Made by a program: the position numbers and the translations under genes
The notes under the pieces: generated by a model
What the model saw: only the letters and a program-made list of their open reading frames with translations
Databases searched by the model: none
Told to the model about the DNA's origin: nothing
In this document: positions 57,033-63,779 of the stretch, piece after piece
Layout: every line of letters starts with the position of its first letter
Numbering within the stretch: position 1 is the first letter of the stretch
Assembly (NCBI GenBank): GCA_031421755.1
Contig: JANOPI010000575.1
Coordinates: forward strand, 891 to 64,890
Source: Flavobacteriales bacterium
Lineage (GTDB): Bacteria; Bacteroidota; Bacteroidia; Flavobacteriales_F; PHOS-HE28
DNA length: 64,000 nucleotides
Direction: 5' to 3'

Positions 57033-57103
57033 TAACGTTCCGTCACTTCGTTCTTGACCGGGTATATAGACCCTATATATTTGCCCCATCAACAACCTAC
57101 CAC
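57033..57103 (+). promoter_or_regulatory. class-A promoter+leader cassette A1
   Basis: TTG(57054)-N19-TATATTTG(57076-57083), palindrome TATATAG-acc-CTATATA, CA-rich leader to ATG 57104. Confidence 0.6.
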
Positions 57104-57508
57104 ATGAACAAGTTCACGACCGTACACAGCTCCGGAGCTATCGCCAACCGGACCAGCAAGAACCGCACGTACACGCATGCCGTGTGGCTTACCCGTAGCC
57201 CCGAGATGGTGCGCGCCGAAGCGGAGCGGAACATCGGCATGCAACGCGCCGAACTGGTGCGCCTGACGCATGAGCTGGAGCATGGGGGATCCAGCGTAAC
57301 GCGCCACGGTGTGGACAAGATCAAGGAGTTCGTGGAACATTACCGGGCAAGCATCGCAAAGAACGAAGCACGCATCGCCAACCCCACACCGGAGAGTTGG
57401 TGCTACGGGTGGAGCGGTTCCAAGCTGTTGGCCGAAAGGAAGGCCACACCCATGGCCCGCTGCGGGTTCGGTACTGAGATCACAGAGGCCATCCTGCACA
57501 ACGCTTGA
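57104..57508 (+). CDS. hypothetical protein
   Basis: 134-aa ORF directly after A1. Confidence 0.6.
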   Translation: MNKFTTVHSSGAIANRTSKNRTYTHAVWLTRSPEMVRAEAERNIGMQRAELVRLTHELEHGGSSVTRHGVDKIKEFVEHYRASIAKNEARIANPTPESWCYGWSGSKLLAERKATPMARCGFGTEITEAILHNA

Positions 57509-57512
57509 ACCC

Positions 57513-57794
57513 ATGGGAACAACGAACAAGGCACCCCTCACCGGACACGCTGACGGGTGCAACTACTGGAAGGCGGGCATGAAGCCTTGCAACTGTGGCT
57601 ACAGCGAAGTGCTGGCCACGGTGACGGATGAAGAGATCGCAGCGGCCCGCGCTATCACCTCTGGGCTCACCGTGGGCAATGCTATGGACGCTGCGGTGAG
57701 GATGCGCCCCGAAGAGAAACGTTGTGCGTGTGGGCTGACCATGGCCGCCTGTGCCATGGATGACTGCCCGAGCGACTGTGATCCGTACGCCTAA
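57513..57794 (+). CDS. hypothetical Cys-rich protein
   Basis: Start MGTTNKAPLTGHADGCNYW..CNCG..CACG..CAMDDCPSDC. Its TAA stop lies inside cassette A2. Confidence 0.5.
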   Translation: MGTTNKAPLTGHADGCNYWKAGMKPCNCGYSEVLATVTDEEIAAARAITSGLTVGNAMDAAVRMRPEEKRCACGLTMAACAMDDCPSDCDPYA

Positions 57795-57871
57795 CGGCTC
57801 GTCACTTCGTTCTTGACGGACTATATAGACCCTATATATTTGTCCTGTCAACAACGAACAACACCTGCCAC
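57792..57871 (+). promoter_or_regulatory. class-A cassette A2
   Basis: TTG(57813)-N19-TATATTTG(57835-57842), ATG 57872. Confidence 0.6.
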
Positions 57872-58054
57872 ATGCACACCTTCACACCCGACACCAAGAC
57901 CTGGATCAACGATCACGTGTACGTCCAGACCCTGGATACCACCATCCGCGTGGGGTTCTCCTGGAGCATGGAGGGCGTACAGTTCGACACGATGGAACAG
58001 GCCCACGCCTTCGCCGCCCAGCCCATCGAAGTGATCAAGGCGCTGTTGGCATAA
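57872..58054 (+). CDS. hypothetical protein
   Basis: 60-aa ORF after A2. Confidence 0.5.
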   Translation: MHTFTPDTKTWINDHVYVQTLDTTIRVGFSWSMEGVQFDTMEQAHAFAAQPIEVIKALLA

Positions 58055-58074
58055 CCCGAAACACCTACCACACC

Positions 58075-58329
58075 ATGGAACTGACTGTGAACATACCGGC
58101 CGAACGTGGCCAACGCCTCCAGCACCTGAGCGACTTGCGCCGCTGGATGCACTACAATGTGCCCGTGATCATCGACGGCCAGAAGGCCCGCGCTACCGTG
58201 TACGGTGGCATACCACGCCGCTCGAACGGCCGCCTGTTCTTGCGCGTATGGTTCGGCAAGCAACGCTGGAGCGGATGGACAGGCAAGACTTGGAACAAGG
58301 CCACACTCACCCCGAGCAAAGCCCTTTGA
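58075..58329 (+). CDS. hypothetical basic protein
   Basis: 84-aa ORF. Confidence 0.5.
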   Translation: MELTVNIPAERGQRLQHLSDLRRWMHYNVPVIIDGQKARATVYGGIPRRSNGRLFLRVWFGKQRWSGWTGKTWNKATLTPSKAL

Positions 58330-58332
58330 GCT

Positions 58333-61738: not shown

Positions 61739-61747
61739 CCTTGCACC

Positions 61748-62212
61748 ATGGCCACCCCTACCAAGTTCCCCCAGGTGACGAACACCTACGCGGAGAACCA
61801 ACCCGAATACCTACCGCTGCCCGTACACCGTAACGCGGCCGGCGAAGTCACGAGCTGCTGGCAGCTCACACCGGAGGAGATGGTCGAAGTGCTGCGCACC
61901 GGTTGCGTGTTCGTCACCTTGCATACCTTCAACCAGAACCTGCAACCGATCACCGTGGCCGCATCGTTCCGGCCCTGGGATCCGGTGAAGTCCGACGAGG
62001 ACACCGCGCGTGATGCCACCGTGAAGGAGATCGTGCTGGACGGGTTGCGCGGTATCATGAAGAACGAGCCCAGCAGTTCGTGGCTGGGCCGCATGGAGGA
62101 AAAGATGCGCGAGCGCGGCATGCACTTGGTCAAGCTGGAGCACAGCCCCCTGGGAGTGGTCCATACGGTGACCTACACCCACGCCGGCAAGGAGCACGAG
62201 GTGGCCATCTAA
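61748..62212 (+). CDS. hypothetical protein
   Basis: 154-aa ORF. Its TAA stop lies inside cassette A6. Confidence 0.55.
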   Translation: MATPTKFPQVTNTYAENQPEYLPLPVHRNAAGEVTSCWQLTPEEMVEVLRTGCVFVTLHTFNQNLQPITVAASFRPWDPVKSDEDTARDATVKEIVLDGLRGIMKNEPSSSWLGRMEEKMRERGMHLVKLEHSPLGVVHTVTYTHAGKEHEVAI

Positions 62213-62286
62213 CGGCTCGTCACTTTGTTCTTGCGGGTGTATATAGACCCTATATATTTGTCCTGTCAACGAACAACGCCTACCAC
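62210..62286 (+). promoter_or_regulatory. class-A cassette A6
   Basis: TTG(62231)-N19-TATATTTG(62253-62260), ATG 62287. Confidence 0.6.
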
Positions 62287-62580
62287 ATGAACTACCGCAA
62301 CGCCTCCCAAGTACGTCACGCTCACATGAACGTTCCCGCTATCACGAATGACCGTGTGGCTGTGATCGTTACCACGAAGCTGTCCGCACGCAAGTCGATC
62401 ATGGGTGTGCAGTTCTGGACCCGCGAGATGATCGAGGCCAAGACATCCACCAACTCGGACCGCACGGTGTCCACCTTCATCGAGCACCTGCACCCTTCCA
62501 CGGCACCGGCCAAATTCGAGGGCATGGTGGATGTGGGCGGTGAGCAGTTCGCACATTTCAGCAACGTGGCCCTGGACTGA
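62287..62580 (+). CDS. hypothetical protein
   Basis: Start MNYRNASQVR after A6. Confidence 0.55.
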   Translation: MNYRNASQVRHAHMNVPAITNDRVAVIVTTKLSARKSIMGVQFWTREMIEAKTSTNSDRTVSTFIEHLHPSTAPAKFEGMVDVGGEQFAHFSNVALD

Positions 62581-63065
62581 TGGACCCGCACGAAGAACAC
62601 CCAGGGGAGCACGTGCTGGTTCCCTTCCGTGGTGTACACCTGACCGCCGAGGCTCTGGCCGAGTATGACCGCAGCGAGTACCGCCGTGTGCCCTGGGGTG
62701 ATGTGCCACTGATCACGCCGGCCGAAGTGCGGCAAGAGATCGCGCACAACCGGACCCTGCCACCGGTGGACGTTATCGACTACCCGGATCGCCCTTTCTT
62801 TGCGCACATGCCCAAGGACGAACGCATGAGCGCCCAGGAGCTGGTAGACCGCATCGGTGCGGCATCACGTGCCCAAGGTGCGCACACTACCCGCCTATGG
62901 GTGAAGGACAGCGACCTGGACATCCCCGCCCGCTTTATGTGGCTATGGACGGCGATCCTGGTGCTGGGCATCGCCCTTGCGTTCTCCGCGTGCGCACCCA
63001 GGCAGCACCATTTCAAGCGGCCCGACTTCCCCGCACCACAGCCCAAATTCGACCCCTCCAAATGA
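62580..63065 (+). CDS. hypothetical protein with a C-terminal TM segment
   Basis: 161 aa, FMWLWTAILVLGIALAFSAC, TGATG overlap. Confidence 0.5.
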   Translation: MDPHEEHPGEHVLVPFRGVHLTAEALAEYDRSEYRRVPWGDVPLITPAEVRQEIAHNRTLPPVDVIDYPDRPFFAHMPKDERMSAQELVDRIGAASRAQGAHTTRLWVKDSDLDIPARFMWLWTAILVLGIALAFSACAPRQHHFKRPDFPAPQPKFDPSK

Positions 63066-63676
63066 ACACGCGCACCGAGATGTACACTGGTACCGGTCCT
63101 GATGACGGTGAGGAAGTCACGGGCAAGATGGGTGAGGCCAGCGCGAACATGCGTGAGGCCAACACCAAGCAGGCCCACTTGCCCGAGCACAAGCCCCATC
63201 CCATCACCCTGGAGCGTTGGTGCGTGTGGAAGGAACAGGGCTGCACCATGGAGAAGGACAACCCGCGCCGCGTGAACGTGTACGTGTGCGATGATGGGCA
63301 CGAGACTTTCAGCCTGGACATGGACAAGGGTACCACGCCCTCCTTCATCCCGTGCCAGATGCCGGGGTGCAAGCACGATGCGGCCAGCTCCATGTACCTG
63401 ATCCCGGACGCGTCCGAGATGATCCGTATGCACGAGCCCTACATGTTCCAGTGGATGCGGCCCAAGGTGTTCGACGTACCGCGCCGCGACTACATGCACT
63501 GGCGCAGTGGTGGCCTGCTGTTCCACTATGGCACCAAGTTGGGCAGCAAACTGGTCTGGCCAGGACCGGTGATGAACCGCAGCGACCGCCGGGAAAAGGA
63601 ACGCGGGGAGGTGAAGAAGGAAGGGCTCTTTCGTAAGCGCCTGAGCGGTTCCAAGGGCAAGCACCGGAACAAGTGA
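63062..63676 (+). CDS. hypothetical Cys/His-containing protein
   Basis: Start MNTRTEMYTG (ATGA overlap). CVWKEQGC..CDDGH..CQMPGCKHD may be zinc ligands. Its TGA stop lies inside an AAGTGACTT copy. Confidence 0.55.
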   Translation: MNTRTEMYTGTGPDDGEEVTGKMGEASANMREANTKQAHLPEHKPHPITLERWCVWKEQGCTMEKDNPRRVNVYVCDDGHETFSLDMDKGTTPSFIPCQMPGCKHDAASSMYLIPDASEMIRMHEPYMFQWMRPKVFDVPRRDYMHWRSGGLLFHYGTKLGSKLVWPGPVMNRSDRREKERGEVKKEGLFRKRLSGSKGKHRNK

Positions 63677-63679
63677 CTT
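63671..63679. repeat. AAGTSACTT palindrome copy (cAAGTGACTTt)
   Basis: Read directly. It overlaps the stop codon at 63674-63676 and lies about 40 nt upstream of the -33 of cassette A7. Confidence 0.9.
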
Positions 63680-63699
63680 TGCCGGCAGGTGGACCGGTC

Positions 63700-63779
63700 T
63701 AACGGCTTGTCACTTCGTTCTTGACGTAATATATAGACCCTATATATTTGTCCCGTCAACAACGAACAACACCTGCCAC
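63700..63779 (+). promoter_or_regulatory. class-A cassette A7
   Basis: TTG(63721)-N19-TATATTTG(63743-63750), perfect TTGACG../CCGTCAA arms, ATG 63780. Confidence 0.6.

Follow-up and report, generated by a model that had tools for sequence, protein, structure and literature searches.

Seven repeated cassettes at the right end of the window

The subject of this report is an array of seven near-identical cassettes, each made of a putative promoter and a short leader, which divides the last 7 kb of a 64-kb stretch of DNA (contig JANOPI010000575.1; hereafter the window) into mini-operons of small genes. The window is part of an uncultivated myovirus and covers 64 kb of a ~80.7-kb contig, of which ~16.7 kb lie outside the analysis. 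It has ~59% GC throughout, with every plausible gene on the + strand, and the array is situated downstream of the modules for structure, replication and lysis. Between 57 and 64 kb there are ~18 small open reading frames (ORFs), for only two of which family hits were obtained (methyltransferase-like and DUF7717). No mutual similarity was found among the ORFs of the array, which thus contains no paralogues; since the genes between the copies are unrelated, tandem gene duplication is no explanation for the repeats. A 332-nt non-coding gap (56772-57103) precedes the first cassette and holds a perfect hairpin (CTGCCCTATAAT / ATTATAGGGCAG) with GC clamps and an AT-rich centre. It probably acts as a terminator that insulates the array on its left side; alternatively, it may be a module boundary.

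A preliminary description of this locus, made from the sequence alone, had reported seven near-identical copies and likened them to the promoter-early-stem-loop (PeSL) elements of T4-like phages (PMC2839356; PMC4122927). The copies are indeed found at the given positions. The repeat finder returned one direct-repeat family of seven copies, starting at 57032, 57791, 59474, 60452, 61241, 62209 and 63699, with identities of 71-100% across 95 nt. In a MAFFT alignment of the copies the similarity has sharp borders, C-TAA on the 5' side and ATG on the 3' side, and the length from the TAA to the base preceding the ATG is 71-82 nt. A cassette profile run over the window with nhmmer gave exactly seven copies (E 1.7e-18 to 3.7e-27). 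All seven share a 21-nt core, TATATAGACCCTATATATTTG, with 0 mismatches, whereas chance would give 0 such sites; this core occurs nowhere else in the 64 kb even when three mismatches are allowed, nor in 100 shuffled sequences. The pattern TTG-N19-TAnnTTTG, searched on both strands of the 64 kb, matches these seven sites only, against a chance expectation of 0.10 and a shuffle maximum of 2. All columns of the core are invariant (21/21), as compared with 28/62 for the remainder of the repeat. For the 13 core positions that belong to the spacer only, chance invariance has P ~3e-5, which is so improbable that it suggests a constraint on the spacer beyond sigma binding. These results confirm that the array is real and highly non-random, and from its sequence we consider the cassettes very probably functional.

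The opposite view would be that the similarity is a remnant of a recent tandem duplication without any selected function. The identity of 71-100% among copies lying within 7 kb is what such an event would leave, but the genes between the copies are unrelated, the similarity stops sharply at the stop codon and the ATG, conservation is much higher in the core than in the flanks, and phages whose helicases are only 47-55% identical still have homologous cassettes. In our opinion this explanation is hardly credible.

Each cassette consists, in this order, of a ~15-nt element CTAACSGYTYGTCAC, 7 nt, a -33 TTG, a 19-nt spacer, the -7 box TATATTTG, a leader and the ATG (Table 1). The leader is ~25 nt long, unstructured, CA-rich and without a Shine-Dalgarno sequence. 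The predicted transcription start (+1) was placed by analogy with F. johnsoniae, in which the -7 box has its G at -5 (PMC6847099); relative to it the dyad in the spacer runs from about -25 to -9, and the upstream element from about -56 to -42. The dyad is a 7-3-7 palindrome, TATATAG-ACC-CTATATA, lying between -33 and -7 in all copies, with its 3' arm overlapping the -7 box. It is nested, just as had been described, within the outer arms TTGACGG / CC(T/C)GTCAA, and three copies have a third tier, TTCGTT / AACGAA. The TAA at the 5' edge does serve as the stop codon of the upstream gene in four of the seven copies (ORF ends 57794, 60455, 61244 and 62212). A small correction concerns the seventh copy, whose downstream ATG is at 63780 and whose gene is cut by the window end. 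The interpretation given in the preliminary description is partly supported; what it did not single out is the upstream element CTAACSGYTYGTCAC, the most widely conserved part.

Two further sequence families touch on the cassette. Its 3' leader motif ACCTACC(A/C)C also stands, without a promoter, directly before the ATG of the internal gene 58075 (58054-58075) and of the SbcC-like gene 43359 (43346-43358); with 8 matches where 1.2 are expected, the motif may have a part in translation initiation. Window-wide, the heptamer GTCACTT / AAGTGAC is also over-represented (24 matches against 7.4 expected; examples are 4036, 6951, 48371, 56792(-), 57014(-) and 63671(-)). Its sites tend to be intergenic, just 3' of terminator-like hairpins, and in copies 1 and 7 an upstream AAGTGAC is able to pair with the GTCACTT of the cassette.

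Table 1. Coordinates of the cassettes, their parts and the mini-operons they delimit (position 1 is the first base of the window)
Feature	Position	Strand	Details
Hairpin	56842..56869		perfect 12 bp, 4-nt loop; -17.9 kcal/mol, z -3.7
Cassette 1	57033..57103	+	most diverged copy, leader 9 nt shorter
Cassette 1, parts	57032-57083		upstream element 57032-57046; -33 TTG 57054-57056; dyad 57063-57079; -7 box 57076-57083
Cassette 1, start signals	57088; 57104	+	predicted +1 near 57088; ATG 57104
Mini-operon 1	57104..57794	+	ORFs 57104-57508, 57513-57794; no family hits
Cassette 2	57792..57871	+	TAA 57792-57794 ends gene 57513-57794
Cassette 2, upstream element	57791-57805		CTAACGGCTCGTCAC, followed by 7-nt gap
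Cassette 2, -33 TTG	57813-57815		19-nt spacer with 7-3-7 dyad TATATAG/ACC/CTATATA at 57822-57838
Cassette 2, -7 box	57835-57842		TATATTTG; its first four bases also close the 3' dyad arm
Cassette 2, leader	57847-57871		predicted +1 G 57847; ~25 nt, CA-rich; ATG 57872
Mini-operon 2	57872..59468	+	ORFs 57872-58054, 58075-58329, 58333-58848, 58845-59468 (DNA methyltransferase-like)
Cassette 3	59475..59555	+	-33/-7 span 59496-59525; dyad 59505-59521; predicted +1 59530; ATG 59556; TAA in frame, 9 nt (three codons) past the TGA of methyltransferase-like gene 58845-59468
Mini-operon 3	59556..60455	+	ORFs 59556-59963, 59971-60177, 60174-60455; all ORFans
Cassette 4	60453..60534	+	-33/-7 span 60474-60503; dyad 60483-60499; predicted +1 60508; ATG 60535; TAA ends gene 60174-60455
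Mini-operon 4	60535..61244	+	ORFs 60535-60837, 60837-61244; both ORFans
Cassette 5	61242..61322	+	-33/-7 span 61263-61292; dyad 61272-61288; predicted +1 61297; ATG 61323; TAA ends gene 60837-61244
Mini-operon 5	61323..62212	+	ORFs 61323-61661 (DUF7717), 61748-62212
Cassette 6	62210..62286	+	-33/-7 span 62231-62260; dyad 62240-62256; predicted +1 62265; ATG 62287; TAA ends gene 61748-62212; -33 region TTGCGGG
Mini-operon 6	62287..63676	+	ORFs 62287-62580, 62580-63065, 63062-63676; all ORFans
Cassette 7	63700..63779	+	-33/-7 span 63721-63750; dyad 63730-63746; predicted +1 63755; ATG 63780; preceding gene stops 24 nt before, at 63676; following gene cut by window end

Promoter type and host

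The -7 box TATATTTG, present in 7/7 copies, fits TAnnTTTG, which together with TTTG or TTG at -33 characterises promoters of the Bacteroidota primary sigma factor (PMC6847099, PMC9723704), as well as the refined Bacteroidota/Flavobacterium consensus TAHHTTTG with its G at -5 (PMC6847099). The claim that the spacing is exact holds without exception: the -33 TTG lies at N19 from the -7 box in all seven copies, and also in the cassettes L080b and L081b of two related phages described below. This distance is within the range of the published motif TTG-N17-23-TANNTTTG (10.1101/172254). Translation signals were compared at 82 gene starts of the window. Shine-Dalgarno-like tetramers precede 10 of these 82 genes, against 13.2 at random positions, so there is no enrichment, and A is enriched at -12 to -16; a lack of Shine-Dalgarno sequences combined with A-rich leaders is the pattern described for Bacteroidota (PMC6847099). 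With a consensus unique to these sites, no Shine-Dalgarno sequence, A-rich leaders and a geometry kept in relatives, the promoter reading is well supported in silico. We think it likely that the cassettes are composite early-gene expression units, which would be driven by host primary-sigma promoters in a Bacteroidota-type host and would have an additional role in recombination.

It was pointed out in the preliminary description that the same bases can be read as TTGACG-N16-TATATT. If so, these would be sigma-70-type promoters of a host outside Bacteroidota and the FCB group, and the TTTG would be incidental. The hexamer reading stands for six of the seven copies (TTGACG or TTGACC) and fails for copy 6, which has TTGCGG. 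Six of the seven copies score 10/12 against TTGACA/TATAAT with a 16-nt spacer, and the L081 cassette even reads TTGACA-N16-TATATT. However, the TG that follows the hexamer within TAnnTTTG is invariant in the copies, in L080 and in L081, although a -10 box needs none, and a spacer of 16 nt is shorter than the optimal 17. The missing Shine-Dalgarno motifs and the A-rich leaders do not suit such a host either, nor do the endolysin, which has mostly Flavobacterium-phage matches, the polymerase with its mostly Bacteroidota cellular hits, and the Bacteroidota-phage terminase of L172 (see below). Hence we regard the sigma-70 reading as quite improbable.

The protein evidence just mentioned is as follows. 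Flavobacterium phages account for 146 of the 167 records found with the endolysin, and the top cellular hits of the polymerase are mostly Bacteroidota. Taken together with the promoter motif and the lack of Shine-Dalgarno sequences, this points to a host among mid/high-GC Bacteroidota or a close relative in the FCB group; a similar RpoD motif is known from Chlorobaculum (10.1101/172254). The match of the cassettes to the Bacteroidota consensus is perfect in silico.

The gene content is that of a myovirus. Virion genes in the window encode the tail sheath, baseplate proteins and the tape measure protein (an ORF of 1492 aa). Among the replication genes are those of a primase, a DnaB-like helicase and a family A DNA polymerase to which a UDG domain is fused. 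For recombination there are a NinB/Orf-like mediator, SbcCD-like proteins, a RusA/PDDEXK-like resolvase, UvsW-like and Dda-like helicases and SSB. The polymerase and helicase are also present on the NCBI contig of 80,712 bp. The phage further encodes an endolysin, three methyltransferase-like proteins, a WYL_2 protein (51202-51687) and a ParB/KorB-like HTH protein (42416-43345). No tRNAs and no Rfam families were found in the window. We take the phage to be of lytic type. None of 50,697 deposited phage genomes is closely related to it, BLASTN of the region against these records matched methyltransferase fragments only, and tblastn with the sheath, endolysin and polymerase retrieved no close cultured relative.

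Several of these genes have features of their own. The family A polymerase (35219-38797) has 1187-1192 aa as against 861-862 aa in relatives of 58-69% identity; a UDG domain lies at the N-terminus, the match to the polymerase domain falls into two stretches, and an HNH/His-Me endonuclease-like ORF (38794-39261) follows the gene. This suggests that the polymerase gene carries an insertion (possibly intein-like) or a homing element. The tape measure gene contains five in-frame tandem repeats of 147 nt (10582-11396), and the SSB-like gene (39316-40548) contains five 63-nt repeats (40138-40473), which encode alternating acidic and basic stretches.

A second promoter-like family in the window has the form AATTTTG-N19(-22)-TA(C)nnTTG(C), and behind it comes a leader with conserved CCGCCCAGAC. 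Its sites are 23151-23197, 29060-29103, 34730-34776, 51133-51179 and 53746-53792, with weaker ones at 4060-4090 and 48365-48408. They precede replication, methylase, sheath and other genes, their -7 box is one T off TAnnTTTG, and the family is kept in L078 (69% identity; 4950-5005). It is probably a middle or late class needing a phage factor.

Homologous cassettes in related phages

Relatives were found with homologues of the Dda-like helicase as anchors, and four were fetched. Two of them, L080 (helicase 55% identical) and L081 (47%), have cassettes that nhmmer identifies as homologous (E 2.5e-8 and 8.6e-4). L080 has two, one of which reads CTAACCGTTCGTCAC-ATTTTCC-TTG-CGT-GTATGGT-ATTTC-ACCATAC-ATTTG, followed by a CA-rich leader and an ATG. 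The L081 cassette is CTAACCGTTCGTCAC-ATTCCCC-TTGACAAATTACACAGACGCCGTATATTTG, again with a CA-rich leader and ATG, and an additional partial copy lies directly after a canonical terminator; hairpins like that at the left edge of the array adjoin the L081 cassettes (L081 13215-13245 and 14985-15010). The -7 boxes are TACATTTG in L080b and TATATTTG in L081b, and in L080a, L080b and L081b the upstream gene once more ends with the TAA. What is kept across the three phages is the upstream element, its 7-nt distance to the TTG and the N19 / -7 geometry. The dyad behaves differently. Here it has the arms TATATAG/CTATATA and a loop of 3 nt; L080 has GTATGGT/ACCATAC and a loop of 5 nt, and L081 has GACAAATTAC/GTAtATTTGTC. 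In all three phages the 3' arm lies over the -7 box, in a shifted register. As far as these alignments go, the dyad is kept across lineages as a property and not as a sequence. Within L080, the palindrome block is identical in both copies although one of them has degenerate -33 and -7 boxes.

One gene of the array can be followed outside the window. Gene 60837-61244 has a homologue in L081 (13298-13717, 34% identity), which also ends at a cassette TAA but has another position in the array. The closest helicase relative, L082 (63%), has no cassette within its 7.9 kb. Its region 3800-7370 is gene-poor and contains several other repeat families (72-107 nt, 3-8 copies), one of which begins with CCTAACGGGTGTAC, recalling the 5' end of the cassette, and has no -33/-7 consensus. 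Four distant low-GC relatives (L083, L087, L088 and L095) have their own families of 3-7 copies of TTTG-N19/20-TAnnTTT(G/A) among small ORFs, and in one of them the repeat has a palindrome plus a T-run across the -33 box. Given these families, the repeated -33/-7 layout appears, by sequence pattern, to be general for this broad phage group.

Searches of larger collections with the core or the whole cassette brought up no relatives. The exact 21-nt core has 0 matches in IMG/VR and 0 in GTDB genomes; a loop-relaxed core gave 75 loci in JGI metagenomes, all of them chance matches in AT-rich DNA; the strict whole-cassette pattern gave 0 matches in IMG/VR and 3 in GTDB genomes, chance matches inside coding DNA. 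A helicase-profile search of IMG/VR found relatives of at most 43% identity, without GTCAC-type cassettes.

The upstream element in unrelated phages

The upstream element reaches beyond the lineage. IMG/VR was scanned for CTAACNGNTNGTCAC-N7-TTG and for exact CTAACCGTTCGTCAC, and amid chance matches several contigs with promoter-like contexts were recovered: L172, the group L207/L209/L211/L216, and L215. L172 (42 kb, 61% GC) has three sites, each with a tandem copy of the element and, behind it, TTG, a box containing TTTG and a leader (TCAACAAAACGCGAAACACCTCTCACAATG) similar to that of the cassettes; by inspection of the sequence, one site adjoins a divergent XRE-type regulator. L207, L209, L211 and L216 form a second group carrying the element. 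L215 has two divergent sites, one of which is TTG-N20-TAGGTTTG. In the stretches compared, there are no detectable proteins common to L172 and the window or its relatives, and the other element-carrying contigs have at most one weak match to the window. The terminase of L172 matches Bacteroidota phages almost exclusively. A full-text literature search for the element sequence returned no relevant record. A CRP-like or ECF-like reading of the element was also considered and set aside, as on inspection the geometry does not fit.

An element common to unrelated phages would be either the site of a host factor, of which all phages of that host would make use, or a piece of some regulatory module passed from phage to phage. 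We may speculate further that phages of mid/high-GC Bacteroidota share a larger and so far undescribed family of mobile promoter modules to which the cassette belongs, marked by the 5' element (C)TAACCGTTCGTCAC with its stop codon; this idea has a small but real chance of being right. If true, the element would be a docking site for a host or phage factor that boosts early transcription, or alternatively a preferred crossover point by which ORFans are plugged into early arrays across lineages. Either way, it would be a Bacteroidota counterpart of PeSL-mediated modular shuffling between unrelated phages.

Possible roles of the dyad

The half-site CTATATA occurs in the cassettes only (15 matches against 0.75 expected). 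Folded as RNA, the inner stem has -3.1 kcal/mol; the full hairpin reaches -13 to -14 kcal/mol and lacks a U-run behind it. We tentatively favour an operator, at which a phage-encoded dimeric repressor would shut early transcription off, and judge the chance of this role to be somewhat below even. The operator is favoured because 17 bp including the loop are invariant, because the dyad is in the classical position for a repressor, and because the block is kept independently in L080a. As to the binder, the ParB/KorB-like HTH protein, which is encoded in the replication module, is a candidate by guess.

The main alternative is a weak hairpin acting as a read-through attenuator, as in PeSLs. This is possible, if doubtful. 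It has an experimental precedent in the PeSLs (PMC2839356), the TTTG of the -7 box could act as a short U-run after the stem, and the change in sequence, loop and register between lineages looks structural and not sequence-specific. What speaks against an attenuator is the inner stem of only -3.1 kcal/mol and the full hairpin without a U-tract.

Another explanation would leave the promoter aside and have the repeats act mainly at the level of RNA or of recombination, either as intercistronic terminator, attenuator or RNase-processing hairpins joined to a translation leader inside a single long transcript, or as attC-like sites of a cassette array. Indeed an extended imperfect hairpin reaches -13 to -25 kcal/mol (z -4 to -5), ACCTACCAC also precedes the promoterless internal gene 58075, and the element starts at the stop codon of the upstream gene, with PeSL stem-loops being proven terminators. 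But such an explanation would leave the perfect -33/-7 boxes with their exact N19 in all copies and relatives unaccounted for, and it meets the same weak inner stem and missing U-tract as well as an absence of Rfam matches. As for attC-like sites, no integrase was found, there is no R''/R' core pair, and the 3' side is without GTTRRRY. In our view it is unlikely that the repeats act mainly in this way.

The early promoters of phage N4 are hairpins with stem and loop dimensions resembling the 7 bp and 3 nt seen here. The dyad could by analogy be a DNA hairpin promoter for an RNA polymerase that the phage encodes or brings in with its virion, in which case the host-consensus match would be secondary. 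In its favour, folding of the dyad as single-stranded DNA beats shuffled sequence (z -3.7 to -6.3), and ~16.7 kb of the 80.7-kb contig, lying outside the window, leave room for a polymerase gene. On the contrary, no RNA polymerase domain was seen among the scanned proteins of the window, whose 1492-aa ORF is the tape measure protein; the host -33/-7 geometry is kept in relatives while the sequence, loop and register of the hairpin change; and neither L081 nor L172 has a comparable compact hairpin. We would be very surprised if this were the case.

In the reading that we prefer, promoters of the host type controlled through the dyad, some observations do not sit well, and they should be counted against it together with the sigma-70 reading given above. 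The weak inner RNA stem and the lack of a U-run after the full hairpin make a terminator function doubtful. No repressor was identified, the ParB/KorB-like protein being only a guess. By lineage the dyad varies in sequence, loop (3, 5 and ~9 nt) and register, which is unlike a conserved operator, and the spacers of L172 differ from copy to copy. Finally, the invariance of the core could partly stem from recent gene conversion.

Proposed mode of action and recombination

Promoters of the host type would work as follows. Right after infection, unmodified host RNA polymerase with its primary sigma factor would bind the -33/-7 boxes without any phage factor, so that the cassette promoters would be the earliest and strongest of the phage. 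Transcription would begin about 5 nt past the G of TTTG, and the upstream element, a UP-like site or one at the distance of a class-I activator, would raise polymerase recruitment. Each promoter would yield a short mRNA for 2-4 ORFans with an unstructured leader and no Shine-Dalgarno sequence; the ORFan products presumably have host-takeover or anti-defence functions. The hairpin at the left edge (Table 1) would shield the array from upstream transcription, and the invariant dyad across the -7 box would give negative control.

The shared ~80 bp, acted on by the recombination genes of the phage, would further permit exchange between copies. Since the same ~80 bp stand beside unrelated genes, the copies offer homology for recombination. 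In the alignment of the seven copies, several pairs of polymorphic sites have all four allele combinations, for instance TTCGTTC/TTCCCTC with CCT/CCC-GTC, and CCT/CCC-GTC with CTA/CTG-CCAC. Such mosaicism indicates exchange between copies, as gene conversion or crossover would give, recurrent mutation being a possible alternative. Recombination would homogenise the copies, and gene cassettes could be gained, lost or moved, as has been proposed for PeSLs. Gene content does differ in the distant relatives.

Repeated early-promoter cassettes are familiar, hence a specialist will not be greatly surprised by the array as such. The newer parts are the Bacteroidota-type implementation, a stop-codon-containing element common to unrelated contigs, and a dyad whose structure is maintained through changes of its sequence. 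Little is known about how transcription is controlled in Bacteroidota phages, and the promoter and translation signals of Bacteroidota depart from the E. coli paradigm. The array is a clean, internally replicated example of a predicted strong phage promoter with its leader, possibly usable as a genetic part for such hosts. It also offers a candidate upstream promoter element conserved across phage lineages, and a test case for the generality of PeSL-type shuffling among tailed phages.

There is a practical side as well. The Logan contigs L076 (window 61287-62268) and L077 (window 62249-63757) run from repeat to repeat, and the IMG/VR contig of L172 ends inside a cassette. With contigs breaking at cassettes, ORFan-rich early regions will be systematically fragmented in short-read metagenomes.

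Comparison with known systems

The cassettes resemble Bacteroidota primary-sigma promoters in the TAHHTTTG box, the TTG-N19 spacing and the predicted leadered transcripts with A-rich leaders and no Shine-Dalgarno sequence. Unlike the promoters of the host, they form a phage array of seven near-identical copies, their -33 is cTTG instead of TTTG, and the upstream element and the spacer dyad are extras beyond what is described for host promoters.

One palindrome placed in many promoters of a single replicon is known from the KorB OB sites of IncP plasmids and from the SopB/centromere sites in N15 promoters. The likeness lies in the repetition of one perfect palindrome and in a ParB/KorB-like HTH protein in the same genome. 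In contrast to these systems, the palindrome here has an unrelated sequence, no ParA partner was seen in the window, and the binder is only a candidate.

Integron attC sites are likewise imperfect inverted repeats at the 3' end of gene units, often over the stop codon, and they too bound unrelated genes. Each unit here has its own promoter, which distinguishes it from attC cassettes. The 5' sequence (G/A)YCTAAC does fit RYYYAAC in six of the seven copies, but a GTTRRRY partner and an integrase were not found, and an attC identity was rejected.

The haloarchaeal myovirus HGTV-1 has a PeSL-like motif, a TATA-box-like region with an inverted repeat, before most ORFs of its left arm (cited in PMC3950731). 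The similarity is that a repeated promoter with an inverted repeat precedes many small ORFs in one arm, and there it was read as serving regulation and shuffling. HGTV-1 differs in that the promoter is of the archaeal TATA type, the virus is unrelated and there is no common sequence. Thus, PeSL analogues outside T4-like phages are already known.

The closest parallel remains the PeSL itself, and here the preliminary comparison agrees point by point with the published definition. A PeSL is a composite of ~100 bp whose first part is the stop codon of the gene before it and whose last parts are a ribosome-binding site and the ATG. In between lies a strong early promoter recognised by the primary sigma factor of the host; the stem-loop of the PeSL, mostly between the two boxes or over the -10 box, was experimentally shown to be a terminator (PMC2839356). 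PeSLs flank ORFans in hyperplastic regions and recombine to give indels and mini-circles (PMC2839356). The cassettes described here start at the upstream stop, contain a putative promoter of the primary-sigma type with a potential stem-loop between and over its boxes, and end with a leader and ATG; they stand densely among small ORFans in a plastic region, in a phage with its own recombination machinery. As judged from sequence, the cassettes have the whole architecture of a PeSL. There are differences as well. Termination, mini-circles and shuffling are described for PeSLs, whereas for the cassettes they would be predictions. There is no sequence homology, the promoter is of the -33/-7 type TTG-N19-TAnnTTTG and not sigma-70, and a Shine-Dalgarno sequence is lacking. 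The upstream tract is a specific GC-containing element instead of being AT-rich, the stem is weak and AT-only as compared with the typical GGGG...CCCC of PeSL stems, and the phage is a ~80-kb myovirus with a family A polymerase rather than one of T4 type. Given its promoter type, its lack of a Shine-Dalgarno sequence, its specific upstream element and its non-T4 phage, the cassette is best regarded as an analogue of the PeSL and not as its homologue.

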